64,000 nucleotides of DNA from an uncultured Bdellovibrionales bacterium. GTDB taxonomy: Bacteria > Bdellovibrionota > UBA1018 > CAIPTA01. Where the stretch lies: the NCBI GenBank assembly GCA_964416595.1, contig CAYQES010000004.1, positions 5,588 through 69,587 of the forward strand. Reading direction: 5' to 3'. The notes beneath the pieces are model-generated. The model ran no database searches. It was not told where the DNA came from and was given only the letters and a program-made list of their open reading frames with translations. Positions 590 through 53,311 of the stretch are shown here, one piece after another. The stretch's first letter is position 1. Each line of letters starts with the position of its first letter. Made by a program: the position numbers and the translations under genes.

Positions 590-1621
590 GTGGTCTCTGT
601 TCAGCATTTAAAAAAAGGCGACATCCTCATGAAAGAGGGTGAAACCAGTAACTCCATGTATTGGGTGCAGTCGGGCACGCTCCGGCTTTTCAAGAAAAAG
701 GGGTCCGGCTTCATCGAGCTCGGCGTGGTGCACTCTGGGGAAGTGGTGGGGGATATGAGTTTCCTCGATAACCAACCCCGTTCCGCTTCCGTGGAAGCCC
801 TCCAACCTTGCGATATCGTGGAAATCCCAAGAGGAAAGTTCGACGAATTCATCGCCGCCCAACCCGCCTGGATGAAATCTTTGGTGCAAACTTTGGTGAA
901 GCGCTTACGCAGCACCAATAATCGCCTGCGGGAGTTGGAAAATTCTTCCATGGTGTACACCAAAGACGAAGAAGGCCGTACCACCAAGGTGCATGAATTT
1001 TTGTCTACGGCGGAAACTTTGAAGTTAAGTTCCGCTATTTTGCTCGCAGCCAGCAGGAACGGCGAAAAGAATGCGGATGGCTCTCCCAAGATAAAAGCCG
1101 GTTGGGTGCAGTTTTATGGCTCCCAGATTTTCGGCGTGCAGCTTTCCAAGATCCAAACCTTTATCGATGTGCTCAACGATGCCAAAATCTTGCGCATCGA
1201 AAAAGGCAAAGATCAGGTGGATCTACATTTATTGCAGTTAGATCGCTTGGAAAAATTTATGTATTTCTCCCATGAGGAGAATGGCAAAACCGAAGATAAA
1301 CAATTACCCCTCACCGATAAGGGCGTAGCAATCCTCGAGTTCGTGGCCGAATTTAGCGAGATCAGTAAAGCCAAGGGCGAAACTTTTTCCGTGGATATGG
1401 AACAAGTGTTTCAAAAGGCTGCCGCTGCCAAGAATGAAAAAATTCCCTTCGAGTGGGAAGCGTTTAAAGAATTGGTGAAGGGCGGTTTTGCCCAGGAAGT
1501 GCGGGCCGAAGGCACGGCGAAAACGGCTGTGTTTCAGTTACCCCGCTTCCAAGCCCTGGCGCCTTTGATTTCGCTCCGGCAGCGTTTCCGGGAGCTGAAT
1601 GTGCAGAAGCGGGATGTGTAG
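590..1621 (+). CDS. cyclic nucleotide-binding (cNMP/Crp-like) domain protein with uncharacterised C-terminal domain
   Basis: The N-terminal 120 aa carry a cNMP-binding beta-barrel signature (GDILMKEGE...YWVQSGTLRLF...GEVVGDMSFLD...PRSASVEAL). The remaining ~220 aa have no recognisable motif. Confidence 0.6.
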   Translation: MVSVQHLKKGDILMKEGETSNSMYWVQSGTLRLFKKKGSGFIELGVVHSGEVVGDMSFLDNQPRSASVEALQPCDIVEIPRGKFDEFIAAQPAWMKSLVQTLVKRLRSTNNRLRELENSSMVYTKDEEGRTTKVHEFLSTAETLKLSSAILLAASRNGEKNADGSPKIKAGWVQFYGSQIFGVQLSKIQTFIDVLNDAKILRIEKGKDQVDLHLLQLDRLEKFMYFSHEENGKTEDKQLPLTDKGVAILEFVAEFSEISKAKGETFSVDMEQVFQKAAAAKNEKIPFEWEAFKELVKGGFAQEVRAEGTAKTAVFQLPRFQALAPLISLRQRFRELNVQKRDV

Positions 1622-1781: not shown

Positions 1782-4700
1782 GTGGAAATCTTTCGCAAAA
1801 TTTCGCTTTTTCTTTTTCTGCACTTGCTGTTGATAACGCAAGTTATGGCCGCGCCTACGGCGCTGGAGAGACGCTCCAAAGACCTCAAAGAATGGGGAAA
1901 TAGAGTTCGAGACGAAATGGGAACTTTGCTGACTCCACCTGCGGGCAGCATAGATCCTGCGGTAGCGGCGGCTCGCACTAAAATCCAAGAGATTGTGGAA
2001 AATTTGGCGGGGGAACGTTTAAAAAATGCACCCTTTCAATTGGTGATAAACTTATTCGAAGGCCCGGTGCCCAATGCCTACATGAACAACGTGGATGCTT
2101 CTTACCAAGAAAAAAAAGGTCTCCTTACGCGCATAAAAAAAATGCTGGGCGCAAAAGACAAACCTGTTTTTGAGTTGGGCATCAGCACCGAGCTTTTAAG
2201 GTTAGCCAGTACCGAAGATGAATTAGCTTTTATCGTGGGCCATGAATTGGGCCATTTGCTGGAAGGCCATGTGCACACTCACGCGGGCGAGGATCGATCA
2301 AAGCACTGGTGGTCGAGCCAAGCCAACGAAGTGGCCGCGGACTATGAAGGCCTACGCATGATGCGGGGGAAATATGATCTTACGGCCGGCATAGATATTC
2401 TCGCTAAATTGAAATCACTTCAGGCCGCCGACGAAAATCTCTTGCGGGGAGCCATTTTTTCCGGTTTAGGCACCCACCATCATGAAGGGCCGCGCTTTAG
2501 TTTAATGCAAGCGAATATCGAAAATTTACGGCGCACTCATTTGGATGCACAACCTCGGCAAAGGCTTCCCTTGGAAGAGGATTTACGTGTTCTAGGGGGG
2601 AGAAAAAGAGGAGGACAAGACGCCCAGATCTTTGAAAAAAATAAAGGCTTGGTGCAGGAAATTGTGGAGAAATATTTCCTGCCCGAAAAAAAATTTCCTA
2701 TTTCTTTTGAAGATGAGCATTATCTTTTCGATACGCCAAAAAAATTCGATAAGATATTTGACGCGGGAGAAGTATTAAGCGATCGGCAAATCCACGACAC
2801 TTTCCTCTATAATTTTAACCTAATCAAGAAGGCAAACGCCAGTAAGCAAGCGAAAGTAAATTCCCTGCTGAAGTTAGCACTATTATCTGACTATTATGTA
2901 GCCGCTAAAAATAGTAATGGTCACGTTTGGCAAATCCTATCGCCTAAGGAACTACAGGAAGTCACGCATTTTTTGGCTAGTCAAAGTGTAGGCGAAGGCG
3001 CTTGGCAGCTAAAAGGTTTTTTTGATTCTATTCAATATTCAACGGTGAAGGAAGTTTTATTGCAAAGCTTTCTCGCTAGCCCAAACCTCCAAAAGGAAAT
3101 ACAGCGCCTGGGGAAAACCATCCCTGCCTGGCACACATTCTATGATGATTTGTTGGCCAAGGTATTATTGGAAAACGACAAGATAAAGCTTAACGAGATT
3201 TCAAGAATTTTAAATACGCATCCCCCCCTCTTTTTTTCCAAAGAGACAATTCAAGAATCCGTTGGGGGGAAAAAAGTACGTGTAGTTCGCTATAAAATGC
3301 AGCCAACGGGCGCCCAAAATATTGAAACCATTTTTCGAATTTTAGGCACACAAAATTTAGCGGCGATTGTAAGGGAACAGCCCATAGAGGCACTGGACCT
3401 TTACGAAAAAACAAAAAATTTAGATGGAGTGAAAAATCCTCTGGAAAAGGAATTTTTAGTGAGAATGCGGCCGTTTTTGGAGCCGGCTCTGCGTGATTTA
3501 CAAGCTGACTATTTTTCTGTGTTTACTTCTCATCTTGCAAAGAGTAACAAACCATACCGCTACCACGGTGCTGTAGAAAATATTCTACTCTTTGAAAAGA
3601 GCATGGGAGCCAACCCAGCCTTTGATCATCCCACTCGCAACCTCTTTCTAGAAATTTCGGAGCTTTTCCCAAAACTCGGCAAAGACGTTGTGAACACAAT
3701 GCAATCCCCCATATTTGTAGACTACCTATCAAAGATGCTGGTGGATCCCACCATTCCTTTAGAGAAAAAGGAAAACCTATTCAACTGGCTAATCGCAGAT
3801 AGCATCGGAAAAATGCCTCTTTTCCAGGAAGAAGAAAAAAATCAGAAAATGTTGGCCCGGATTTCGGAATACTTTCAACAAAATTGGGATCGCGAAAAAT
3901 TGCAGAAATTTTTGACCAGTGGGGCTTTAAAGGCAAAAACAAAAAAGAAGATCGAAGCTTTTCAAGAGAGAATAAAGGCGGAGCCCTCACTTCTTTCATC
4001 CCAATCGCATGAATTGCATTATTTTTTAGGGCAGCCGCTGGAGGAAAAAAATGGCTTTTTAGCAATGTTAAGTCATTTGGAGGGAAAGGAAAAAATATTC
4101 GATTATTCTTCCCTCGACAAATATCTAGCGTGGAGAAACTCATATAAACAGTTGTCCCTAAAAGAGGTGGAAAGAGTTTCCGGAAAAAAATACATAAAAG
4201 ATGCGGTTGAATATCTTAATTTCACAGATATCAACTCCGCCTCGTTTCTTTTGGATGTTTTCGTGCAAAATCAGTCTCAGGCAACCAGTTATGCCAGCTG
4301 GAAAAAGAATTTTTTAGCCATTGTTCAGAATTTTCCCCAGGTGTTGGATGCTAATCAAAAGTACCGGCAAGAGCTCATGCCTTTTCTGGAAAAGAAATGG
4401 TTTGAGGGGTTGCCCATAGAAAAAATTGCAAAGGAATTGGAAAATCCTCACATCCGCGCCATCCTTAACCCTGAGCAATTGGCCGATTATTTATCTCGTT
4501 ACGCTTTAGCGAGATTGGACGGAGTGCTTTACACCAATACGCGCGCCAAGGATTTGTTGGAGAAAATAGAAAAAACCTACGTTTTAAAAGAAAATCCTGA
4601 AGCCAGAGAAATTTTTAAAGAGAAGTTCTTGGTGGGCATGAAAGCCCAACCTGGGCAGGCTGATAAACTTTTTCCTAACCTAACTAAGGCTTTTACCACC

Positions 4701-6419
4701 ACGGAACTTACTACTAGCATGAATGAGCCCATCCGGGGCCTCAGCACGATGGTGGCCCTTACGCGGCCGGAGCCTGTGGAAGAGCAATTGAAGATGATTG
4801 ACTATCTTTTAGGAAACCAAGATGAGGTTCCCACTTTTTTTAAAAAAGCGGTGGCAAAGGTTGATGCGAACAAATTGCCCCGGGCCAACAATCTTTTGTT
4901 ACTAGCCCGTTCCCGCTTGAAAAATGCCACGCAAGTGGAACGTGCCGTGATGGTGAATAGTTTCTTGGCGGGCCCCAGTGGCCCAGGGGAATCGGACGCT
5001 GGAATAAAAGTGATCACGGATAAGATTTTGGCGAATGTAGATTCAAAAAACAAAGAATTGGCAGAAGTTTTTGCCAAGGCTTTACTCGATGCCAATAGCG
5101 ATATGCGCTCCTTGGCATTGAGCTACATTCTTGCTGGCCAAAAACCCGGCGTAGCTTTAAAGGAAGCAGATATTTTGGCGAGCTTGTTATTAATGCACGG
5201 AGTGCCCGGTATTAAGCTCGGCCAGTATTTAGGTTTTACGGAAGCATTTAAAGAGTACGCGGAAAAATTAGCAGACTTTCAGGATGCAGCCTCTCCTTTG
5301 AAATACGGAGAAGTGATTGATCTATTAGAAAAGCGCTTTGGCAAAGATTGGCCAAAAACCATGGAAGTAAAAGGTTTGCTGGGCTCCGGTTCCGTGAACG
5401 TGGCTGTGGAATTAGTGGATAAGAAAACCGGTCAATCCCAAGTGATTTCTATTTTACGTCCAGATATCCAGGTGTCCGCTCAAGATAGTTTCCGTAAAAT
5501 GAACGCACTTCTTGCGGAATTATCGAAGGTAAAGACATTAGGATACAACTTTGATTTCCTAAAAGGCCTATCCGGCATTGTGCAAAAATCTGTGGAACTG
5601 GAATTCGATAAGCAGGCAGCTTTCGATATGCAGCGAAGGGTGTTCGACCGTTACGAAGCTAAGAAAAATGGCTGGACAATCGAATCCGTGGAAGCACTTA
5701 AGATGGAGCATGACGGAATCTTTATGCAAAAAGCTAATGGAGTAACGGCCAAGAAACTTTTCCGCACCGATCCCGCTCTGTACAAACAGACCATGACGGC
5801 CATGAGTGAAGTGGAAATGGATATTCTCTTAGGGATTGGGAAAGATGGCAAACCTCATCCTGTTCCTCTCCACGCCAATCCGGACTTCCACGATGGGCAA
5901 GTGATCATTGATGTAGAAAATCGCAAAGTGCAGATTCTAGATTTCGGCCAGGCCGTGGAAATTTCAAATGCGGAGAGGAACCAAGCCATTGAAGTGTTGC
6001 GGGTGATTTCCAAGTCTGAGAGCGCAGAATCGGCCCAGAAGATTTTAAATCAACTTTCTAAGGAGATTAGTGGTAAGGAAGCATTCACTTTAGATGAAGT
6101 GAAGAAGCTCCTCAATAGCTCTTCTGACCGCATGGATTTATTTGTGAAACTTATTTCCCATATGCGCCTGAAAGAATCGGAGCTACCGCTGCCAGTGGTG
6201 CATTGGGTTTTGGGGGTAAATCGCCAGATAGAATTGGGTAAAAAAATCGGGGTGGATAATTTGGCGGTTTTCCGTAACTTGATCATCGCCCGTAAAGCGG
6301 GATTGAGTCCTAAGTTTTACAACCGTGCCCACTTGAGTTTTCGCTCCGTGAAAAAATTTGCCCGCACTTGCAAGGAGCGCTTTGGCCAGCTGCTTTTGCT
6401 TTCGCCTATTAGCCCTTAA
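1782..6419 (+). CDS. giant secreted multidomain protein: signal peptide + M48-like Zn-peptidase (HExxH...ExxAD) + long helical region + C-terminal ABC1/UbiB-like atypical kinase fold
   Basis: Single 1545-aa ORF with a GTG start. The N-terminus is hydrophobic (FLFLHLLLITQVMAAP). There is a HELGHLLEGH motif followed by NEVAADYEGL (third Zn-ligand motif of M48). C-terminal motifs read LGSGSVNVAVEL, ELEFDKQAAFD, HANPDFHDGQVIID and ILDFGQA, in ABC1 order. Confidence 0.7.
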   Translation: MEIFRKISLFLFLHLLLITQVMAAPTALERRSKDLKEWGNRVRDEMGTLLTPPAGSIDPAVAAARTKIQEIVENLAGERLKNAPFQLVINLFEGPVPNAYMNNVDASYQEKKGLLTRIKKMLGAKDKPVFELGISTELLRLASTEDELAFIVGHELGHLLEGHVHTHAGEDRSKHWWSSQANEVAADYEGLRMMRGKYDLTAGIDILAKLKSLQAADENLLRGAIFSGLGTHHHEGPRFSLMQANIENLRRTHLDAQPRQRLPLEEDLRVLGGRKRGGQDAQIFEKNKGLVQEIVEKYFLPEKKFPISFEDEHYLFDTPKKFDKIFDAGEVLSDRQIHDTFLYNFNLIKKANASKQAKVNSLLKLALLSDYYVAAKNSNGHVWQILSPKELQEVTHFLASQSVGEGAWQLKGFFDSIQYSTVKEVLLQSFLASPNLQKEIQRLGKTIPAWHTFYDDLLAKVLLENDKIKLNEISRILNTHPPLFFSKETIQESVGGKKVRVVRYKMQPTGAQNIETIFRILGTQNLAAIVREQPIEALDLYEKTKNLDGVKNPLEKEFLVRMRPFLEPALRDLQADYFSVFTSHLAKSNKPYRYHGAVENILLFEKSMGANPAFDHPTRNLFLEISELFPKLGKDVVNTMQSPIFVDYLSKMLVDPTIPLEKKENLFNWLIADSIGKMPLFQEEEKNQKMLARISEYFQQNWDREKLQKFLTSGALKAKTKKKIEAFQERIKAEPSLLSSQSHELHYFLGQPLEEKNGFLAMLSHLEGKEKIFDYSSLDKYLAWRNSYKQLSLKEVERVSGKKYIKDAVEYLNFTDINSASFLLDVFVQNQSQATSYASWKKNFLAIVQNFPQVLDANQKYRQELMPFLEKKWFEGLPIEKIAKELENPHIRAILNPEQLADYLSRYALARLDGVLYTNTRAKDLLEKIEKTYVLKENPEAREIFKEKFLVGMKAQPGQADKLFPNLTKAFTTTELTTSMNEPIRGLSTMVALTRPEPVEEQLKMIDYLLGNQDEVPTFFKKAVAKVDANKLPRANNLLLLARSRLKNATQVERAVMVNSFLAGPSGPGESDAGIKVITDKILANVDSKNKELAEVFAKALLDANSDMRSLALSYILAGQKPGVALKEADILASLLLMHGVPGIKLGQYLGFTEAFKEYAEKLADFQDAASPLKYGEVIDLLEKRFGKDWPKTMEVKGLLGSGSVNVAVELVDKKTGQSQVISILRPDIQVSAQDSFRKMNALLAELSKVKTLGYNFDFLKGLSGIVQKSVELEFDKQAAFDMQRRVFDRYEAKKNGWTIESVEALKMEHDGIFMQKANGVTAKKLFRTDPALYKQTMTAMSEVEMDILLGIGKDGKPHPVPLHANPDFHDGQVIIDVENRKVQILDFGQAVEISNAERNQAIEVLRVISKSESAESAQKILNQLSKEISGKEAFTLDEVKKLLNSSSDRMDLFVKLISHMRLKESELPLPVVHWVLGVNRQIELGKKIGVDNLAVFRNLIIARKAGLSPKFYNRAHLSFRSVKKFARTCKERFGQLLLLSPISP

Positions 6420-7799: not shown

Positions 7800-8609
7800 A
7801 TGGAAAACACCCTAAATTTGCTACTTCAGGACACAGCCCCTAAATGGTTTACCGTGGTGAATGCGCGCCCGGTGGGCCCCTTGAGCGCTAAGGAGATAGT
7901 CCAGCGGCTCCAGGCCCATGAATTGAGCTTTGCCTCCCATGTGTGGAAGGACGGCCTGAAGGGTTGGACACGGATTTACGACGTGATCGATTTTAAGCCC
8001 CTCTTGCCTGTGGAGCCCGAGCCTTCTTTGATCGGAGAAATACAAAAATCCACCCAGGTGAATCCACCGCCTTTATCGCCGAAGCAAAAACAAGATTTGC
8101 GCACTTGGTATGTGTATTTGGACGAAGCCAATTACGGCCCCATTTCCGACCAAGAAGTAATTGGTCTTGTGCAAGCCGGAAGGATCATGCCCTCCACTTA
8201 TATGTGGCAGAAGGGATTTTCCGATTGGCAGCAGGCCAAGGATATCGACATTTGGACCAAGCTCATGGGCGGCGCTAAAGCTCCTGCGGCTTCCGGCAAA
8301 CCTGCGGATAAAAGGGCTGCTCCCCGCAAACCCTTCGAAGCCAAGATCTTGCTCACGGACGGCAAAGAAGTGGGCTGGGCCATTTGCCGGGATATCAGTG
8401 TGGGCGGTATGCAAGTGCTCATGGATCATGCGCCTGGCCCCGCGGGCACTACACTCAAACTTAATGTGAATCCCCACGGCAATATTCCGAGCTTTGCTTG
8501 CGAAGGTTCCGTGGTGCGCATTCTAGAAGATGGCCGGGGTTTTAGTTTCCGCTTCCAAGCCCTTTCGCCAGAAGCCAAGAGCGCTATCGAGAAACATATC
8601 GGCCAATGA
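7800..8609 (+). CDS. c-di-GMP-binding PilZ domain protein with two N-terminal GYF-like (DUF4339-type) repeats
   Basis: ATG preceded by AAGGA. The C-terminal domain carries RxxxR (RAAPRK) and D-x-S-x-G-G (RDISVGG) PilZ motifs. The N-terminus has two ~50-aa repeats (W..VVNARPVGP...W.DG...W and W.VYLDEANYGP...W..GFSDW). Confidence 0.6.
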   Translation: MENTLNLLLQDTAPKWFTVVNARPVGPLSAKEIVQRLQAHELSFASHVWKDGLKGWTRIYDVIDFKPLLPVEPEPSLIGEIQKSTQVNPPPLSPKQKQDLRTWYVYLDEANYGPISDQEVIGLVQAGRIMPSTYMWQKGFSDWQQAKDIDIWTKLMGGAKAPAASGKPADKRAAPRKPFEAKILLTDGKEVGWAICRDISVGGMQVLMDHAPGPAGTTLKLNVNPHGNIPSFACEGSVVRILEDGRGFSFRFQALSPEAKSAIEKHIGQ

Positions 8610-43411: not shown

Positions 43412-45859
43412 TTACAGAGCCGCGGCCAATTTTCTCAAAGATTCCCGCGTGCGAGCATCGGTAGTGGTGGCGATTTCCGCTTGGATCGCAATTTTCACCC
43501 GGGCCCGGGCGTCTACGGCCAGGGGAATATCTTTATAGCTTACCAGTGCATCCACAGCAGCAGCCCGCTCGGTGAGGGGGCGAGCAAGCTCTCCAGCTTT
43601 TGCACTAGCTAAGCCTTCGAGCACACCGATCACAAGCGCCTCCACATCAACCACGGCGCCGTTTCGGGAATGGAAGCTTAGTGGTGCCTCTGGGCTATAC
43701 TTCAAGGCTCCGGCCAAGCGTGTGCGCGCCCGGGCGAGGAGACTAGATTCTAGTGTTGTATAAGTAGTGTCGATCTTACTCAAGATCGCTCCTAGCTTTG
43801 CTTGTCGATCAGTATCCGAAAGTTGGATAAAAGCTGGTGTGGAGAGTAGCCATGCTTCCAAATTGGCCCGTAAGTTTTGCAAAGCTTCCTTTGTGGCCGT
43901 GGGAAACTGGGTAGCAATGGATACTTTTTCTAACAATTGCAGCGCGCGCTCCCGCATTTCCACTTCTTGGTAACCGGCTGGTAAAATACCAGGGCGGTAT
44001 ACATAGAGGGATTTTAGGGATTGGGAGCCGAGATAGGCTAAGCTATTGGCGGAGCCGCCCACATAAATCGAAGCGGTTCCTTGCAAAGTTTTTAGTGCCT
44101 CAGCAATTGCTTCTTCCGCAGCTGCTACGGTGGTGATGCTGGAGGCTTCTGGCAAATTATCGGAAACTCTCAAGATCGCCGAAGGAAGAGAAGTCATGCG
44201 GCGATTGCTGGCGTTTTTATTTTCTAAAAGATCCCAAGAGCGCAAGGCTTGTTTTGTGGGATCGGTGCCGATGTCGTAGCGCACGCAGAGAGGATCCACA
44301 CCTCCAGCCTTGGAATCGGCTTCCTCATCATTACAGGTAGGTAGCACGAGATCTGTGTTTCGCACGTCTTTACCTTCGTTATAGAGCATGGAAATGATTT
44401 GTCGATCGTATTCAAGCAACGGACCATCCGCAGAATCTAGATCAAAGAAAGCGGCTTCTTCTTCGTTATACTGGTTGTAATCCATGATGGAGTGGCTGAA
44501 GAGAGTGTTGGCATTATCAGGATCAAAGGAAAGGGATCCTTTGAAATTATGATCGAGTCCTAGAGCGTGGCCCACTTCATGGAACAACACGCCCTTCAAA
44601 AGCGCCCGGGCAAATTCTTCGGGGCTTTGTTTCGATTCCAAGGAAATGTGCAAGTGCGCGCTATCCATGCAGTGCACGGGTAGGGAGCGGCCCATGAATT
44701 TACGATTTTTTAGGATGCGAGATAAAACTTCCGAACGTTTCTCGTGGGCGGCTTCGGTGCCAGCGGCATTTTCCCAATATTCTTTTCCAATATTGATCCA
44801 AGCGTAAGGCAGGTAGATTAAGGAGTGGCTCTGAACGCCCGTGGTGGGATCGGCTGCTTGGCTTTCATAAGCGGAGCCAGCCTCCTGGATATTATCCCAA
44901 ACAATAATGTTGTAACGGGGATCGCCCACGTTCACGCCTTCAGGCAAGCGGCCCTCAAAGCGAACGAGATCCGTTTTTCCCATGGCCCGGGAATAACGGT
45001 TCCAAGCTTCCACGCTATTTTTTACGTCGAGGAGGTATTCTTCGGGGATATTCGGAGTCACCCACCAGCGGATCGCTTCGTTAGCTTTTGGCACGAAACG
45101 CACGGCCACCAATGTTTCGATGCGTTCGTCTTCGTGGTCCACATACACATCCCCTGCGTCCAAGAAACGGAAACGGGCGGCGTTAGGATTTAATTCTGGA
45201 TCGGCAAAAATGGGCTTCACATCTTCAGGAACAATCCGTTCCCGGGGTGTGAGAGTTTCCATAAATTCGGCCACTGAACCATTCATTAACTCCACAGAGC
45301 TTTGGATGAGGAAAAGTTCATCTTGGGCAGCAAATTCTAACGTGCGGATCCAAGAAGCGCGGGTGGGCATTTCATCTTCTGTTTCTGGATCCATCAAAAG
45401 AGTGCTCAGCACGGGAGAAGCTTTATCGGCCCGGAATGTGAGGAATTCTGCATTTTGGGAAAGGATCACGAATTCTTGGATCAAACGGGCTGGGTGATTT
45501 ACATCGGATTCAAATCCTAAGCGGGAATCCGTAACGAGCCGTAAGCGATTGTCTACGATTTTAAATTCTGCGGGAGTTTGCCCGATGGAGATCGCCATGA
45601 TCGGCTCAGCCTTTTCTTGTCCCCTTTCTCTTAAGGCAGCAAATTGCAAACTAGCGCCATAGAGGAAGGGGCGATTTAGGATAGCATCTTTGCGCACGGT
45701 TACTTCGGTAACCACAGCCGGCGAGCCTAAAGGCAAAAGAGAGTGAATAACGGATTGTTTCAATGTAGCCGTGAGAGGAACTCGTGGCCCTTGGGTTTTA
45801 CCGTCAGTGCTGAAAGCAAAAAGAACGATGAGTGAAAAAAGCAGATGGCATAAACGCAT
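43412..45859 (-). CDS. large secreted zinc metalloprotease (metzincin HExxHxxGxxH), 815 aa
   Basis: Signal peptide MRLCHLLFSLIVLFAFSTDG. HEVGHALGLDHNF zinc motif, with SIMDY as a Met-turn candidate. Long N- and C-terminal extensions. Confidence 0.65.
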   Translation of the reverse strand: MRLCHLLFSLIVLFAFSTDGKTQGPRVPLTATLKQSVIHSLLPLGSPAVVTEVTVRKDAILNRPFLYGASLQFAALRERGQEKAEPIMAISIGQTPAEFKIVDNRLRLVTDSRLGFESDVNHPARLIQEFVILSQNAEFLTFRADKASPVLSTLLMDPETEDEMPTRASWIRTLEFAAQDELFLIQSSVELMNGSVAEFMETLTPRERIVPEDVKPIFADPELNPNAARFRFLDAGDVYVDHEDERIETLVAVRFVPKANEAIRWWVTPNIPEEYLLDVKNSVEAWNRYSRAMGKTDLVRFEGRLPEGVNVGDPRYNIIVWDNIQEAGSAYESQAADPTTGVQSHSLIYLPYAWINIGKEYWENAAGTEAAHEKRSEVLSRILKNRKFMGRSLPVHCMDSAHLHISLESKQSPEEFARALLKGVLFHEVGHALGLDHNFKGSLSFDPDNANTLFSHSIMDYNQYNEEEAAFFDLDSADGPLLEYDRQIISMLYNEGKDVRNTDLVLPTCNDEEADSKAGGVDPLCVRYDIGTDPTKQALRSWDLLENKNASNRRMTSLPSAILRVSDNLPEASSITTVAAAEEAIAEALKTLQGTASIYVGGSANSLAYLGSQSLKSLYVYRPGILPAGYQEVEMRERALQLLEKVSIATQFPTATKEALQNLRANLEAWLLSTPAFIQLSDTDRQAKLGAILSKIDTTYTTLESSLLARARTRLAGALKYSPEAPLSFHSRNGAVVDVEALVIGVLEGLASAKAGELARPLTERAAAVDALVSYKDIPLAVDARARVKIAIQAEIATTTDARTRESLRKLAAAL

Positions 45860-46058
45860 ACATTCCCCCTTGTCTGCGGTCAGAACGCCGCAGAAGTCTA
45901 TGGGTTATGCTGAATTTCAACGTGTAGCACAAGAAATTTATGTTGGAGTTTTTTTGCCGAATATTCTGTAAGACTTTTACAGGATACCGCGTGGCCGCTA
46001 CATATTTATAAGTGCCTGTTTTCTTTAAAACATCCCTAGGTACGGGTAGAATTATTTT

Positions 46059-47327
46059 ATGGAACTCGCCTTTCGCTCGGAGCAAGGATCGCAACCGCGG
46101 AATGAGGATAGCTGTTTAGTTAAACAGGAGCAGGGATTATTTCTGGTTTGCGATGGTTTGAGCCTAAAAAAGGGCGGGAATTTGGCGGGCCAATTGGCCG
46201 CGGAGGCTTTTGTTTCTTGGTGGGAAAGTAACCGATCTTTACGGGAGAAGATTCCCAATCCACTGGCAAAGGAAGAAAAGAAGAATTGGGAAGAGGCCTT
46301 TCGCTTAGCTTTCCAGGAAGCATCGAAGCGAATTTTTCAAAAAGCCACTTCGGATCCAGAATTACATGGCATGTGCACAGGTTTGGATGCGCTCCTCATT
46401 TTGGGGCAGCATGCATTGATTGGTCATGTGGGTGCGGGCCGAGTGTATTTAGTGCGTAAGGGAGAATCCCATTTGCTCACGGAAGATCACACTCAACTTG
46501 CCTATTTACGAAGAGTGGGAAAATTACAAAACGTGAGCCCTCAGCAAATGGCCTCTTATGCCAGAAGAATGACACGGGCTGTGGGTTTTCAGGAGGACGT
46601 AAAAGCCGACTTTCTCTTTGTGGAGCTTGAGCCTAACGATCGCTTCGTGGTGATGACTGATGGTGTGTGGCAAACCTTAGGCGAAGAAACTACTTTTAGT
46701 TTGGCGGCACGGGCGGGGAATCCCCAGCAAGTATTAGATTCACTTCATACCACTGTGAACGAAACCGGGCCTCGGGATAATTTCACTACTCTTGTGTTAG
46801 ATCCACAACTCAGCTCTGCTCCAGTGGCGATAGCGGCAGAACAAAAAGTAAAACTGCTGGGAAAGGTGCCCGCCTTCGAATATTTATCGTACCAGGATTT
46901 ATTGAAAGTATTGAGCGTGGGAGATTTGGTGAAAGTGGCCGACGGGCAAACTCTCTGCAAGGAGGGCGATCCTGGCAGCGAGATGATGTTGATTTTATCC
47001 GGCGCTACGAATGTAATGAAGGGCGGACAAGTGATTCGCACCTTGGGCAAGGGTGATGTGTTTGGAGAAATGAGCATGATCGATGCGGCACCTCGCTCGG
47101 CCACGGTGGTGGCAACTGCTGCCACAAATCTTTTGGCCTTTCCTCGAGATTCGCTCTTTTCTTTACTACGTGAAGATCCCATTCTTTCTGTAAAATTTCT
47201 TTGGGGCATGGGAATCGAAATGAATAAGCGGCTACGGGTGGCTTCGAACCGACTCGTGGGTAAACCTGATAATGAGGGTGCTGCCACAGAAAAAAAGCTG
47301 GCCCTGCCTTTTCATCGGAGTGTGTAA
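46059..47327 (+). CDS. PP2C-family Ser/Thr phosphatase fused to a C-terminal cNMP-binding domain
   Basis: The N-terminus RNEDSCLV...GLFLVCDGLS and VVMTDGVW are PPM metal-binding motifs. The C-terminal ~130 aa carry a cNMP-binding signature (GDPGSEMMLILSGA...GDVFGEMSMID..PRSATVVA). Confidence 0.65.
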   Translation: MELAFRSEQGSQPRNEDSCLVKQEQGLFLVCDGLSLKKGGNLAGQLAAEAFVSWWESNRSLREKIPNPLAKEEKKNWEEAFRLAFQEASKRIFQKATSDPELHGMCTGLDALLILGQHALIGHVGAGRVYLVRKGESHLLTEDHTQLAYLRRVGKLQNVSPQQMASYARRMTRAVGFQEDVKADFLFVELEPNDRFVVMTDGVWQTLGEETTFSLAARAGNPQQVLDSLHTTVNETGPRDNFTTLVLDPQLSSAPVAIAAEQKVKLLGKVPAFEYLSYQDLLKVLSVGDLVKVADGQTLCKEGDPGSEMMLILSGATNVMKGGQVIRTLGKGDVFGEMSMIDAAPRSATVVATAATNLLAFPRDSLFSLLREDPILSVKFLWGMGIEMNKRLRVASNRLVGKPDNEGAATEKKLALPFHRSV

Positions 47328-48662
47328 ATGAAGATCTTATTGGTTTCCGACAATAAGGAAGTAAAAGAACTTTTGAGTTTTCATCTCACTTCCCATCATC
47401 CCATTACGGTGCGTGAATGCAGTTCCGCACGGGAAGCCGTGGAAATTCTCAGCAAAGAAGATTCTTCCACTTTCGGAGCGCTTGTGGCGCCTTACAATGG
47501 CCAAGATTCTGTGATTTTGCAGCATTTGAAAGGGCGCGCTACGCCCTTGCCTGTGATTTTTTTCTACGATCCAGTGATGGGCAAGCCTGATAATGCCGCC
47601 TTCGCGGGACTGGCTTTGATTGGCACTGTGGAGCAGGCCACAATGCTGGATGGAATTAGCAGTTTGCTCTCAGGTTTTTTGTTAAAGGGTGGATCGGCGG
47701 AGAGTTTGAGTGAGTATTGCCCGATTCGCACCAATCTCATTATTCGCGTGAGCCCCTTGAAGGGCGATATTTATGTGCGTCTTTCAAAAGATAAATACGT
47801 AAAACTTTTCCGTAGTGGCGATGAGTTTGAACACACAGATCTCGAGAAATACTACGAGACCAAAAAAATCGAATATATGTACTTGAAGCGAACGGATATT
47901 TCCGAATTCATCAATCGCTTTCGTAAAGAACTGGAAGATTTGCTCGCGCGCAGCGATGTGAAACCCGAAGAGGCCTTGGCTACGGCGGAAATGTCGCAAG
48001 AGGCGATCCAGGAATTAGTGCATCGAGTGGGTTTCAACGAGGAAGTGCAAGAGCTTGCGAAGAAAAACGTGCAACTTACTCTAAAGGCCATCGGTGCCCA
48101 CCCACGTTTGCAGGATCTCATCAACAAGGTAACCAAAGAGGGAAATTATATTTCCCAGCACAGCACGCTCCTAGCCCATGTTTCCTGTTGTGTGGCTAAA
48201 GAGATGGAGTGGGGTTCCGATTCCACTTTTAATAAATTAGTGCTCGCTTCTTTTATGCACGATGTTTCTCTCAATAATCCCCAGATCGCCAAGATCAACA
48301 CCATGCGGGAATTAGAGGAACGAAAAAGTGAATTTCCTGAGGATTTGGTGAAAAGCTACCACTTGCATCCGGCTAAATCCGCCGATGTGGTGCGGAATTT
48401 TAAAGAAATTCCTGCGGATGTGGATCTCATTGTGATGCAACACCATGAGCGCCCCAATGGAACAGGGTTTCCTCGAGGTTTGGCGCATAATTATGTAGCG
48501 CCTTTGGGTGCTCTCTTCATCATCTCCCACGATCTCACGCAAGCGATCATGGAACGGAAAGAGGCATTTTCTCTGCCCGATTTCGTGGAAGATAAAAAAA
48601 CTCTCTTCAATCAGGGCAATTTCAAAAAAGTGATGGCGGTGTTGGAGAAAGTGAAGTTATAG
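47328..48662 (+). CDS. degenerate receiver-like domain + HD-GYP-type phosphohydrolase domain protein
   Basis: Its ATG overlaps the upstream stop (TAAATG). The N-terminal ~110 aa have a REC-like fold pattern but no phospho-acceptor Asp (ILLVSDNKE; no D near residue 55). The C-terminus has FMHDVS (HD) and HHERPNGTGFP (HHExxDGxGYP-like) HD-GYP motifs. Confidence 0.6.
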   Translation: MKILLVSDNKEVKELLSFHLTSHHPITVRECSSAREAVEILSKEDSSTFGALVAPYNGQDSVILQHLKGRATPLPVIFFYDPVMGKPDNAAFAGLALIGTVEQATMLDGISSLLSGFLLKGGSAESLSEYCPIRTNLIIRVSPLKGDIYVRLSKDKYVKLFRSGDEFEHTDLEKYYETKKIEYMYLKRTDISEFINRFRKELEDLLARSDVKPEEALATAEMSQEAIQELVHRVGFNEEVQELAKKNVQLTLKAIGAHPRLQDLINKVTKEGNYISQHSTLLAHVSCCVAKEMEWGSDSTFNKLVLASFMHDVSLNNPQIAKINTMRELEERKSEFPEDLVKSYHLHPAKSADVVRNFKEIPADVDLIVMQHHERPNGTGFPRGLAHNYVAPLGALFIISHDLTQAIMERKEAFSLPDFVEDKKTLFNQGNFKKVMAVLEKVKL

Positions 48663-49547: not shown

Positions 49548-52500
49548 TTGTTCTTAAAAGCCCTAGCCTTCGTTCGCGACCAAATTGCCAGTTTAATTAC
49601 AGTACAAACCGCTGCCTGGACTGGCTCGTCTATTTTGGCTGCCGTTGCCACTAAAACATTGGTGATGCCTATTATTATGGAAGAGCTGAAAATGGCTCAG
49701 CCGGAGTCTAATCCCGTGGTGGTGGAGGCTCCTCTTTCCTCTGAGCACTCCCACAGAGATTTTCACAATTTACCTAAATCTTTGAACAAGAACTTTGGGG
49801 ATTCAAAAAAAGCCCAATCAGAATCGGCTGCTGTAGATAAAGCTGGGCAAACGAGCGAAGTTGCCAGTAGTGGTGGAACTCCCACTTCAGAGGCAGTGCC
49901 TAGTTTTGGTTTTAGTGCCCCTCGCACACTAGCTTCCAGTGAAAGCAATAAAGTAAAAAAACAAGAGGAAGAGAAAAAGGATTCTTTGTTTGTGGGGGGA
50001 TCTAGTAGTGCTTCTACTAGCACCGATACAAGTACTTCCACGAGCACATCAGCCTCTACTAGCACCACAGAAGAGGCGGTGACCATCAGTGTATCTTTCG
50101 CTGCCAGTTCTCAAACTGTGACGGAAGGCACAGCTACCGCCACTGTAACGGTGAGCCTATCTTCTGCTTCTACAAATGAAATCACGGTGCCCGTTACTGT
50201 GGGCGTAGCTTCTACGGCCGTGAATATTACGGATTATACGATCGCGACTTCCACGGTAACCATCGCCGCCGGCAGCACTTCTGGTACTTTGACTGTAACT
50301 CTGGTGGATGATGCGCTCACAGAACTTTCGAAATCACTCGTATTAACCTTGGGAACACCCAGCGAGGGTGAATTGGTTACTGCTTCATCCACTCACACCA
50401 TTACTTTGAGTGATAACGACACTTCTTCCTTAGCGATCGGCACTCCAGTGAGTGTTACAGAGGGTGGGGTGGCTACCGCTACTGTGACCCTTACAGGTAC
50501 CGCAGCCTATGACATTACCGTTAGCTACTATACCACGGATAGTTCTGCTTTGGCTGCCACTGACTATACAGCTCGCTCGGCTACACTCACCATTCCTGCT
50601 GGTAGCACTTCGGGCGCGATCAACGTGAACACGATCAATAATTCTCTGGATGAAGCGGTTCGTAGTTTCTTTATAACTTTATCTACTCCTGTGGGAGCTT
50701 CTTTAACCACTAATACGGCCACTGTGAACATTAACGACGACGATTTTACCCCGGGTGTATACGCAAAAGCATCCATGGGTGGTGACGCCATGTTGCTGTT
50801 AACGGCTGGAGGAGGCTTAAAGACAAGTGGCAGTGCAAATATTAATGGCTGGATTTTCACTCCTACCGATGTATCTGGCTATACTACTGGCGTTTTAGAT
50901 ATTTCCGCTGGTAATGGCACGTTCTGCATTATCGTAACTGGAAACGCAGCCAAATGTTGGGGGGGGAACGGTAATGGTAGCGTTGGAGACGGAACCACCA
51001 GCAATCGTACAGCTCCCACTCAAGTAACAGGTCTTACTTCAGGAGTTGCACAGATTAGCGCTTATAGTTCATTGGCCTGCGCCGTATTAACTGATGGAGC
51101 GGCGAAATGCTGGGGTAATAATACAAGCGGCGTTTTAGGCGATGGAACTACGAATAACTCTTCCACTCCAGTTACAGTTTCAGGAATTGATGGGGTTGCT
51201 GCCGATGCAATTTATATTGCAGCTGGCACCTCCCGTTCTTGCGCGGTCATTTCCGATGGTACTATTCGTTGTTGGGGGGCTAACTGGTTAGGAGATAATA
51301 CCTCTAACCCCAGCAATACTCCGGTTACTGTGCAGGGGATCGCTTCCGGTGCTACAAAGGTGGGCGTAGGTTACGCCAACTCTTGCGCTCTGGTGAATGG
51401 TGGCGTGAAGTGTTGGGGTTGGGCTAACTATGGTGTAAACGGTGTTTATGCCAATGCTGCTACACCTGTTGATATCGCAGGCCTAACAACTAACGTAATC
51501 GATATAGCTGTGGGCTGGACTAATGCTTGTGCTGTTACTACGGCGGGTGCTGTAAAATGCTGGGGAACGAATGCTTCAGGTGAGCTAGGTAATGGTACCA
51601 GTACTGACAGCGCAACCCCCGTGCAAGTAACGGGTCTTACTTCAGGCGTTACGTCTATATCTGGAATCAGTGGTTCCTTTTGTGCTCGTTTAAGTACTTC
51701 TGAAGTGAAGTGTTGGGGTGACTCTTCTTATGGGAGGCAGGGTAATCAGAAGGGCCCTGGGCACCGATTTTCTCCTGTTGATCTAACTACTTTACCCGCC
51801 AATACTACTGCTCTTCAATTTGGTAACTTCCTTTGTGTGCTAAATAATTTAGGTGGAGTGAGTTGTGTGGGCAATAACGGGCAGCACGGAACCATGGGGA
51901 ATGGTACGTGGAGCAACGCAGTTACTTTCCAAAACGTTACAGGTCTTGCCTCTGGTGTAAGTAAACTAGCTTCTACCACCCATACAATATGTGCTCTATT
52001 GACCGATAAAACGGTTAAATGCTGGGGGTATAGCAATATTGGTCAAGTTGGCGATGGTGCCACCACCAGTCGTAACGTACCCGTGGCCGTAAGTGGTATT
52101 ACTGATGCTATCGATATCTATGCCTATAAAAGCGGTCATGGATTTTGTGTGATCTTAAACGATAAGACAGTAAAATGTTGGGGCTCGAATGACCAATATC
52201 AACTTGGCGATGGCACCAACACCAACCGCAGCGCCCCAGTTGCCGTTGTGGGTTTGGCCGATGTTTCGAAATTGGCTCTATCGACCAGTGGTGCTTGCGC
52301 GCTCTTAACTGATCAAACAGTAAAGTGTTGGGGGCTAGGAAATTCAGGACAGATAGGTGACGGTACAAATAATAACAGAACTAGTCCGACCCAAGTATCA
52401 GGCTTGGGAGTTAGCTCTGGAGTGGTGGATATTACTGCCGGCTCCAACCATTACTGCGTGCGTTTTAATTCTGGTGCTATGAAATGCTGGGGAAATGGTG

Positions 52501-52880
52501 GCTACGGTAATTTAGGCCAAGGAGCTAACACTAATAGTAACGTGCCTATCACTCCCACTGGTTTGGGTAGTGGAGTGAGTGGTATCGCGGCTGCCGGTAC
52601 GATCAGCTGTGCACTTCTTACTACCGGCCCTGTGAAATGTTGGGGCAGCTCTTGGACGTGCGGTAACCCGATTGGTAACGGAGATACTACTTGTGCATTA
52701 AAAAATACGCCGCAACAAGTTTCGGGTATTACAGCCGGAGTTACTGAAATCCAATCGCATACAACTGCTATCACAGCTAAATTAGAAGATGGCACTTGGA
52801 AGTTCTGGGGTGCTGTTGGCACCGATGCGGCCGTACCCGATGGTTTCAACAGCCGGGTTCCCAATTTCGTTGCGCCCTAA
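49548..52880 (+). CDS. giant repeat protein: Ser/Thr-rich linker + three Calx-beta-like repeats + about thirteen RCC1-like beta-propeller repeats
   Basis: Three ~100-aa repeats (TEGTATATVTVSLSSAS...ITVPVTV...DYT..TSTVTIAAGSTSGTLTV.L.DD.L.E). Then ~13 repeats of the form A..CA.L.DG.VKCWG.N..GQLGDGT...R..P. The ORF-track start 49548 is TTG. Alternative in-frame ATGs at 49665 and 49692 make the start uncertain. Confidence 0.6.
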   Translation: MFLKALAFVRDQIASLITVQTAAWTGSSILAAVATKTLVMPIIMEELKMAQPESNPVVVEAPLSSEHSHRDFHNLPKSLNKNFGDSKKAQSESAAVDKAGQTSEVASSGGTPTSEAVPSFGFSAPRTLASSESNKVKKQEEEKKDSLFVGGSSSASTSTDTSTSTSTSASTSTTEEAVTISVSFAASSQTVTEGTATATVTVSLSSASTNEITVPVTVGVASTAVNITDYTIATSTVTIAAGSTSGTLTVTLVDDALTELSKSLVLTLGTPSEGELVTASSTHTITLSDNDTSSLAIGTPVSVTEGGVATATVTLTGTAAYDITVSYYTTDSSALAATDYTARSATLTIPAGSTSGAINVNTINNSLDEAVRSFFITLSTPVGASLTTNTATVNINDDDFTPGVYAKASMGGDAMLLLTAGGGLKTSGSANINGWIFTPTDVSGYTTGVLDISAGNGTFCIIVTGNAAKCWGGNGNGSVGDGTTSNRTAPTQVTGLTSGVAQISAYSSLACAVLTDGAAKCWGNNTSGVLGDGTTNNSSTPVTVSGIDGVAADAIYIAAGTSRSCAVISDGTIRCWGANWLGDNTSNPSNTPVTVQGIASGATKVGVGYANSCALVNGGVKCWGWANYGVNGVYANAATPVDIAGLTTNVIDIAVGWTNACAVTTAGAVKCWGTNASGELGNGTSTDSATPVQVTGLTSGVTSISGISGSFCARLSTSEVKCWGDSSYGRQGNQKGPGHRFSPVDLTTLPANTTALQFGNFLCVLNNLGGVSCVGNNGQHGTMGNGTWSNAVTFQNVTGLASGVSKLASTTHTICALLTDKTVKCWGYSNIGQVGDGATTSRNVPVAVSGITDAIDIYAYKSGHGFCVILNDKTVKCWGSNDQYQLGDGTNTNRSAPVAVVGLADVSKLALSTSGACALLTDQTVKCWGLGNSGQIGDGTNNNRTSPTQVSGLGVSSGVVDITAGSNHYCVRFNSGAMKCWGNGGYGNLGQGANTNSNVPITPTGLGSGVSGIAAAGTISCALLTTGPVKCWGSSWTCGNPIGNGDTTCALKNTPQQVSGITAGVTEIQSHTTAITAKLEDGTWKFWGAVGTDAAVPDGFNSRVPNFVAP

Positions 52881-53066: not shown

Positions 53067-53143
53067 GACACCAAATGGTGCACTCGGCGAGAGTCGAACT
53101 CACGACCTTTGCCTTCGGAGGGCAACGCTCTATCCAACTGAGC
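53067..53143 (-). tRNA. tRNA-Arg (anticodon CCG), CCA encoded
   Basis: The reverse complement reads GCACTCG-TAGCTCAGTTGGATAGAGCG-TTGCC-CTCCGAA-GGCAA-AGGTC-GTGAGTTCGACTCTCGC-CGAGTGC-A-CCA. It has a 7-bp acceptor stem, anticodon loop CT-CCG-AA, a T-loop GTTCGA, and is 77 nt. Confidence 0.9.
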
Positions 53144-53311
53144 TACGAGTGCGAAAATTTGTCTTTGTCCTACCTTTTTCTGCCCACTAGCTCAATGGCT
53201 TTCTCGATTTCTCTCGCAAACCAAGAAATGATGCATTGAATCATTTCTTCCTGCTCTAGCTTGGATTTTTCTTTTTCCTTTCCTATGGCTATACTTTCTA
53301 GCGAGGTGGCA

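Follow-up and report, generated by a model that had tools for sequence, protein, structure and literature searches.

Does a cyclic mononucleotide act on an HD-GYP-type protein by way of a protein phosphatase encoded beside it? This question is raised by two abutting genes in a 64,000-nucleotide (nt) stretch of contig CAYQES010000004.1, from an uncultured Bdellovibrionota bacterium; this stretch is called the window here, and all coordinates are window positions. Gene 1 encodes a Ser/Thr phosphatase of the PP2C (PPM) type that carries a C-terminal domain for binding cyclic nucleoside monophosphates (cNMP), and gene 2 encodes a protein that begins with a receiver-like domain and ends with an HD-GYP-type domain. 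Together they are a coupled two-gene unit. We lean, by a modest degree, towards an operon in which the phosphatase, set by a cNMP, has a modulating effect on the pathway to which the gene 2 protein belongs; the HD domain of that protein would have an output other than the ordinary hydrolysis of cyclic di-GMP (c-di-GMP). Judged from its conserved residues, the gene 2 protein combines a dead receiver with an HD domain that is metal-competent and has a divergent substrate pocket. The features of the locus are the following.

45860..46058, + strand: intergenic, between gene 1 and the divergently transcribed gene for a DUF4953 Met-zincin; from its position presumed to hold the promoter of the pair
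46059..47327, + strand: gene 1, PP2C (PPM) Ser/Thr phosphatase with C-terminal cNMP-binding domain, 422 amino acids (aa) (open reading frame (ORF), Pfam, NCBIfam, homologues, alignment)
46059..46808, + strand: PP2C catalytic domain, residues 1-250 of gene 1 (invariant columns, Foldseek)
46833..47258, + strand: cNMP-binding domain, residues ~259-400 of gene 1 (Pfam, PDB matches, invariant residues)
47317..47330, + strand: coupling junction of gene 1 and gene 2 (GGAG 47317-47320, TAA 47325-47327, ATG 47328-47330)
47328..48662, + strand: gene 2, pseudo-receiver, Bd1817-type N-domain and HD-G(F)P domain, 444 aa (ORF, homologues, AlphaFold model)
47328..47687, + strand: pseudo-receiver, residues 1-120 of gene 2 (AlphaFold secondary structure, Foldseek, profile)
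47709..48113, + strand: beta-rich domain like the N-terminal domain of Bd1817 (residues ~128-207) and helical linker (208-262) of gene 2 (phmmer, profile, Foldseek)
48114..48662, + strand: HD-GYP-type domain, residues 263-444 of gene 2 (Pfam HD_5, structure-linked alignments)

The junction of the two genes

The two ORFs have the positions that a first-pass annotation of this DNA, made from the sequence alone, had given them. That annotation also described a "TAAATG overlap" between them. Gene 2 does start directly at the stop codon of gene 1, but the junction, gtgTAAATGaag, has no base in common: since TAA stands directly before ATG, with a 0-nt spacer, the genes abut and do not overlap. The Shine-Dalgarno sequence of gene 2, GGAG, lies 7 nt before its ATG, within the H-R-S codons at the end of gene 1, and together with the 0-nt spacer it makes the proposed translational coupling plausible. 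Orthologous pairs show ATGA (L003) and GTGA (L006) overlaps, a 5-nt gap (L005) and a 22-nt gap (L004), and the junctions at L081, L082, L166 and L167 are gaps or overlaps of 0-2 nt.

The conserved tail of the gene 1 protein, LPFHRS (window 47310-47330), is coded by ...cat cgg agt..., which holds the GGAG of gene 2. At the sole locus where an orthologue of gene 1 stands without gene 2 (P0155, positions 5001-6299 of L084) the tail differs and reads LPFQWAKRRLNG. Given that the tail differs where gene 2 has been lost, part of the conservation of LPFHRS may reflect a constraint at the nucleotide level. Upstream of gene 1, promoter-like matches (46024-46052) occurred only at chance frequency, and the same was true of the terminator scan. 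A riboswitch or other RNA element upstream was also considered and rejected, as no Rfam family exceeded the gathering threshold there.

Domains and conserved residues of the two proteins

The fusion of a PP2C phosphatase with a cNMP-binding domain, as first described, is borne out by Pfam, with matches of gene 1 to PP2C_2 (47.3 bits, cut-off 24), PP2C (31.6 bits, cut-off 20.3) and cNMP_binding (73.8 bits, cut-off 27.5; residues 291-373). Against the NCBIfam model Stp1_PP2C_phos (Stp1/IreP) gene 1 scores 136.6 bits, under the equivalog cut-off of 230 bits, and it is thus a relative of Stp1 and not an equivalog. Its AlphaFold model has a mean predicted local distance difference test score (pLDDT) of 88.7 and a predicted template-modelling (TM) score of 0.85. 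In Foldseek searches the PP2C domain matched tPphA, PstP, Stp1 and PppA with E-values of ~1e-17 and TM-scores of 0.84-0.90 (tPphA, 2y09: E 1.8e-17, TM 0.89). In an alignment of 28 sequences from two phyla, the M1/M2 metal ligands D17, D32, D201 and D240 (motifs 1, 2, 8 and 11) are invariant, as are E16-D17, D32-G33, D201-G202 and the DG and DN motifs.

The PDB matches of the C-terminal domain are the cyclic-nucleotide-binding domains of PKG, PKA-R and MloK1. Its phosphate-binding cassette is FGEMSMIDAAPRSAT, in which G336, E337, R346, S347 and A348 are invariant in the same 28 sequences, and the idea that a cyclic nucleotide gates the phosphatase remains plausible on these residues. The Ser that follows the Arg (RSAT) resembles CRP and also Bd1971, a cNMP-EAL protein of Bdellovibrio bacteriovorus in which a Ser likewise follows the Arg of the cassette; CRP and Bd1971 bind cyclic AMP (cAMP) and cyclic GMP (cGMP) alike. 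The PP2C of gene 1 is thus probably active and its cNMP domain competent to bind a ligand, which is probably cAMP, alternatively cGMP. Residues 284-393 also gave 55 bits against the PADLOC model for PycTIR, the effector of cCMP/cUMP Pycsar systems, which reflects homology of the common domain only. A role in Pycsar or another defence system was rejected, as the PADLOC matches span the cNMP domain alone, no cyclase is nearby and the locus has a conserved housekeeping synteny.

Proteins of this kind are known from Myxococcales. Mxan4398, sce2855 and sce6950 have a PP2C domain with a C-terminal cNMP domain as in gene 1, to which they align over >90% of its length at 30-37% identity. A study of 2010 suggested that cAMP or cGMP regulates them and called the fusion unique to Myxococcales (PMC2887360); the claim that it is absent outside this group no longer holds. 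In the literature searched there was no functional study of a PP2C-cNMP protein (Mxan4398), only this 2010 census. In contrast to gene 1, the myxobacterial genes never stand beside an HD-GYP gene at the loci among the matches listed.

Gene 2 has a single match in Pfam, HD_5 (37.9 bits, cut-off 27.2), and none to Response_reg. All four domain calls of the first-pass annotation stand: PP2C, cNMP_binding and HD_5 were found in Pfam, and the receiver was recognised by profile and fold. In the AlphaFold model (pLDDT 87.3), residues 2-119 form a (beta-alpha)5 fold, with DSSP elements running from b1-a1 to b5-a5. By Foldseek this domain superposes on the receivers of PhoP, CheY and Spo0F with TM-scores of 0.66-0.80, the best match being PhoP (1mvo; TM 0.80, 2.5 A). 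A profile built from 32 family members matches solved receivers (NtrC1, RR468, YycF and others) over residues 1-127, with E-values of 5e-4 to 5e-3. Moreover, the KaiA_N pseudo-receiver model is matched by a homologue with 64% identity, while a paralogue with 40% identity falls just short of Response_reg. The phospho-acceptor position is Pro55, with Pro in 58/69 orthologues; 20 of the 47 more distant paralogues retain the acceptor Asp. Of the acidic pair of real receivers only D/E8 remains, and their T/S and K have no conserved counterpart. Pro55, the single acidic residue, the lack of T/S or K and the missing Response_reg match together identify the domain as a pseudo-receiver, in agreement with the earlier description of a receiver-like domain without its acceptor Asp. 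On one face of the pseudo-receiver, at the location of the active site in real receivers, the orthologues conserve D/E8 (64/69), P55 (58/69), Y/F56 (63/69), D/E81 (68/69), P82 (50/69) and E/D102 (56/69), and this face could be a docking surface.

The following part of the protein, residues ~128-260, was missed by the first-pass annotation. By sequence comparison it is homologous to Bd1817, the "unconventional" DUF3391-HD-GYP protein of B. bacteriovorus (PDB 3TM8), in the N-terminal domain and linker of the latter. Outside the receiver, gene 2 has one significant sequence match in the PDB, and this is Bd1817 (E 9.6e-12 with the single sequence, 1.6e-18 with the profile). The profile places residues 125-396 of gene 2 on residues 19-280 of Bd1817, and the single-sequence alignment starts at ~19-23. 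Bd1817 is also the best fold match beyond the receiver (3tmd; E 1.2e-8 over 324 columns in Foldseek). None of the 32 family members matched Pfam DUF3391 (PF11871) at E<=1. This is in line with the fact that the Bd1817 N-domain, filed under DUF3391 by Galperin and Chou, is far from the consensus of that family.

The layout of N-domain, helical linker and HD-GYP domain is thus common to both proteins, at an identity of only ~20%. Both have a non-consensus GYP, an N in place of the D of DGxGYP, no lysine in HDxxK, a binuclear-type site and no equivalent of E185, the third-metal ligand of the HD-GYP phosphodiesterase PmGH. Gene 2 differs from Bd1817 by its additional N-terminal pseudo-receiver, by HHE and a terminal Asp/Glu ligand where Bd1817 has HEE and Asn, and by a Phe where Bd1817 has a deletion. 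A receiver-fold domain ahead of the HD-GYP domain is found as well in the REC-HD-GYP (receiver-HD-GYP) regulators RpfG and PA4781. PA4781 (4R8Z) of Pseudomonas aeruginosa reads HHERWDGRGFPEGL, that is, GFP as in gene 2, on which the searched PA4781 literature does not comment. It has limited phosphodiesterase activity with a preference for pGpG, and its unphosphorylated receiver blocks the active site. In contrast to these regulators, gene 2 has Pro at the acceptor site, which leaves no Asp to phosphorylate, a Bd1817-type domain between the receiver and the HD-GYP domain, and none of the canonical substrate-contact residues.

The HD-GYP domain was compared in 116 full-length proteins of the family, of which 69 are orthologues and 47 are paralogues, and its residues were mapped onto PmGH, V-cGAP3 and PA4781 through alignments to 5z7c, 4r8z, 4mcw and 9rbz. 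The roles assigned to the residues are those given in the PmGH study (PMC4159591) and in a census of HD-GYP domains. The GFP reported in the first-pass annotation is there: the motif is HHERPNGTGFP, with G380-F381-P382. H278, H311, H347, H372, H373 and E374 occur in 116/116 members, D312 in 115/116 and D/E402 in 116/116. All ligands of H..HD..H..HH..D are retained, and the binuclear metal motif is thus complete. This is the part of the expected active site that stands; the catalytic helpers and c-di-GMP contacts are lost. Residue 315, which corresponds to K225 of PmGH (the Lys of HDxxK), is Leu in gene 2 and L, V, I, F or M in all 116. In 63/69 orthologues residue 272 (D183 of PmGH) is Gly, and in the same fraction residue 405 (D308) is Gln. 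The position of E185 holds Tyr or Phe in all family members. The KPG and RxxK contacts to c-di-GMP have no counterpart (the aligned segments read ERKSEF and ERKEAF..).

The Phe that replaces the Tyr of GYP (Y285 of PmGH) is found in 116/116 members. Invariant as it is, GFP appears from these alignments as a trait of the family and as the least damaging deviation of the domain, because the PmGH variant Y285A is still active (PMC4159591) and the weak phosphodiesterase PA4781 also has GFP. The PmGH variants D183A, K225A and D308A are essentially inactive (PMC4159591). Thus, the loss of catalytic helpers and base contacts is a stronger argument against ordinary c-di-GMP hydrolysis than GFP, and most likely, as far as these residues tell, the output of the gene 2 HD domain is not standard c-di-GMP turnover.

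The first-pass annotation had coupled the phosphatase to c-di-GMP turnover or sensing, and this proposal is weakened. In its full form it says that a cNMP-gated PP2C controls an active HD-GYP phosphodiesterase, which would make the pair a two-protein node from cAMP to c-di-GMP. Bd1971, a single protein, is the precedent for such a link in the same phylum, with cAMP or cGMP as input to c-di-GMP signalling. The intact binuclear ligands and HHE of gene 2, in which it departs from Bd1817, speak for this explanation, and so do the activity of Y285A, the weak phosphodiesterase activity of a GFP protein such as PA4781 and the tight coupling and frequent conservation of the pair. However, the HDxxK lysine position is hydrophobic in every family member, orthologues have Gly and Gln where PmGH has D183 and D308, neither KPG nor RxxK is present, the matching alanine mutants of PmGH are dead, and Bd1817 shows neither binding nor hydrolysis of c-di-GMP. 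In addition, the pair is dispensable, at 7 of the 18 orthologous loci that were inspected for gene content. Bd1971 also differs in that it is a proven phosphodiesterase whose allostery acts directly within one polypeptide, whereas here there are two proteins and a phosphatase step, and the c-di-GMP activity of the gene 2 domain is doubtful. We therefore consider a c-di-GMP node unlikely, yet serious enough to be kept in view.

Distribution of the pair and its possible mode of action

Gene 2 has 184 homologues. Those with a name come from Bdellovibrionota, Oligoflexia and Bacteriovoracia metagenome-assembled genomes, save two with the generic labels "Proteobacteria" and "Bacteroidia". Gene 1 has ~45 clusters of orthologues at 45-70% identity, and a separate Myxococcota group of homologues has the same architecture at 30-37% identity. 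When metagenomes were scanned with the gene 1 alignment, nearly all of the matches listed were relatives of the Myxococcota type. At the 11 inspected pair loci, the genes occupy a conserved slot, with RlmL, EI24 and the DUF4953 Met-zincin (minus strand) on one side and an RluA-type pseudouridine synthase (minus strand) on the other. The 18 orthologous loci divide as follows.

Both genes in the slot, 11 loci: the window, L003-L006, L081, L082, L086, L166, L167 and the P0129 locus
Gene 2 only, same slot, 6 loci: L001, L002, L083, L168, L169 and L170
Gene 1 only, same slot, 1 locus: L084, a 3.08-Mb contig

Both genes are probably carried by 20 further contigs, since clusters from the homologue searches with gene 1 and with gene 2 agree exactly in the length of their longest contig. 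The expected co-conservation is thus found at 11 of 18 loci but is not obligate, and with 6 loci that keep gene 2 only and 1 that keeps gene 1 only, the link between the genes is facultative. In a neighbour-joining tree of gene 2 orthologues, paired loci are on the deepest branches and loci with gene 2 only appear in at least 3-4 separate places. The pair is thus probably ancestral to the clade and was repeatedly lost. Both proteins keep their catalytic residues where they are found alone. The DUF4953 Met-zincin gene, which in the window (43412-45859, minus strand) encodes 815 aa with a signal-peptide-like N-terminus and is divergent from the pair, is syntenic at all the orthologous loci inspected, those with a single gene of the pair as well as those with two.

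This distribution might also be that of two functionally unrelated neighbours on one transcript, the phosphatase serving Hanks-kinase signalling elsewhere and the HD-GYP protein acting independently. The slot has lost gene 1 on at least 3-4 occasions and gene 2 on one, with the survivor intact. Outside the clade the two do not meet: no PP2C neighbour was found at any of 73 loci of gene 2 paralogues, and no HD-GYP relative near Myxococcota-type PP2C-cNMP genes at any of 80 loci among the matches listed. Nor was a residue signal specific to the pair found. This explanation is countered by the abutting or overlapping stop and start that are retained across orthologues only 45-70% identical, by the Shine-Dalgarno sequence within the conserved gene 1 tail, which differs where gene 2 is lost, and by the apparent ancestry of the pair in the clade. 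We regard mere neighbourhood as rather unlikely; if the link is merely genomic, the locus is an ordinary pair of signalling genes.

The reading that we favour, an operon in which the phosphatase modulates the pathway of gene 2, would proceed as follows. The two proteins would be made together from one coupled transcript, and a cyclic nucleotide (cAMP or cGMP) would change the activity of the phosphatase, which would modulate, as an optional component, the pathway in which the gene 2 protein acts. Its target might be the gene 2 protein itself or a common partner phosphorylated on Ser/Thr. The receiver would no longer be phosphorylatable on Asp, and the HD domain would have as its output some activity or interaction that depends on metal and is not ordinary c-di-GMP hydrolysis. 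Candidates for it are a slow or weak hydrolysis, the hydrolysis of a different nucleotide (pGpG, for instance), or a part in sensing or as an adaptor that needs the metal, which is what is suspected for Bd1817. That one gene or the other was repeatedly lost implies that any link between them is modulatory and not obligatory.

Several observations weigh against this. Motif 5 of gene 1 is HVGAGR and not HVGDSR, with A126 in place of Asp. The position holds A or S throughout the Bdellovibrionota clade, whereas the Myxococcota relatives, including the myxobacterial proteins named above, keep D and HVGDSR. In PP2Cs of the tPphA type this Asp binds a third metal (PMC12088040), and with Ala126 in its place the gene 1 phosphatase may be slow or differently tuned. 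On the side of gene 2, the mapping of PmGH residues rests on low-identity alignments, and HMMER sets the lysine of V-cGAP3 HDIGK opposite K322, by way of a 7-residue insertion. As K/R322 is retained in 61/69 orthologues, this placement makes a displaced catalytic Lys possible. PA4781, which likewise has GFP, does hydrolyse c-di-GMP and pGpG, if weakly. Moreover, no convincing Ser/Thr site was found that is specific to gene 2 proteins with a phosphatase partner. T251 alone differs (S/T in 27/27 paired against 9/14 unpaired sequences, which are phylogenetically non-independent). Finally, unrelated neighbours, too, would be expected to show such repeated losses of one gene or the other.

A more specific scheme is that Ser/Thr phosphorylation has replaced the Asp input. 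A Hanks kinase would phosphorylate the pseudo-receiver or the linker of gene 2, the co-translated cAMP-gated PP2C would reverse this, and the binuclear HD-G(F)P domain would act on a substrate other than c-di-GMP, perhaps pGpG or a further signal nucleotide. If true, a cyclic mononucleotide would control an HD-G(F)P enzyme through a phosphatase step. As it stands we hold this detailed version to be improbable. The partner-switch target named in the first-pass annotation, which would have gene 1 act like RsbU/SpoIIE on a STAS-type anti-anti-sigma factor, is highly improbable and was rejected, since the weak Pfam SpoIIE match (22.9 bits, residues 172-248) stays under its cut-off of 25, the best matches are of the Stp1/IreP, tPphA, PstP and PppA type, no STAS, anti-sigma or sigma gene occurs in the window neighbourhood or at the 18 orthologous loci, and the locus has no Hanks-kinase gene.

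Each protein is of a known kind, gene 1 as a PP2C-cNMP fusion and gene 2 as an HD-GYP protein like Bd1817 or RpfG. What appears to be new in the searched literature is the combination of a pseudo-receiver, a Bd1817-type N-domain and an HD-G(F)P domain with invariant Phe and an intact metal site, as does the coupling of that protein, within one clade of Bdellovibrionota, to a gene for a PP2C-cNMP fusion. The gene 2 family is of interest because its metal site is perfect and its GFP invariant although the c-di-GMP contacts have been discarded, and because most of its members in that clade are physically coupled to the phosphatase. The pair also offers a handle, with two soluble proteins in one operon and sister lineages that serve as natural "knock-outs" for one gene or the other, and it bears on the roles of Bd1817-like proteins and on the regulatory targets of PP2C-cNMP fusions.

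Other signalling genes and neighbours in the window

The first-pass annotation had also pointed to a PilZ protein and a separate cNMP-domain protein in the window, and both are confirmed. The former (7800-8609, plus strand) has two GYF_2 domains fused to a C-terminal PilZ domain. The latter (590-1621, plus strand) has cNMP_binding in residues 5-89 of 343, followed by ~250 residues without a Pfam match. They lie 38-45 kb from the pair, beyond housekeeping operons; the genes between include rimP-nusA-infB-truB, alr, holA, lptE and thrS. No cyclase, GGDEF or EAL gene was present among the 45 window ORFs scanned, which did not cover 6 ORFs between 58031 and 63635, and the Hanks-kinase motif HRDxKxxN was absent from all six frames of the window. 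A second protein of the HD superfamily (34467-35939, minus strand; 490 aa) is encoded 10 kb upstream of the pair, with an HD domain (PF01966) at residues 69-215 and no HD_5.

The neighbours of the pair in the window are EI24, DUF4953, RluA and an RCC1 protein. This last one (49548-52880, plus strand; 1110 aa) begins with a Ser/Thr-rich region of low complexity and also contains two Calx-beta domains and an RCC1/RLD beta-propeller, which is long. Farther away, a 1545-aa ORF (1782-6419, plus strand) has as its sole Pfam match a short N-terminal segment of Peptidase_M48 (residues 66-166), and the only Rfam match in the window is one tRNA gene (53079-53152, minus strand).

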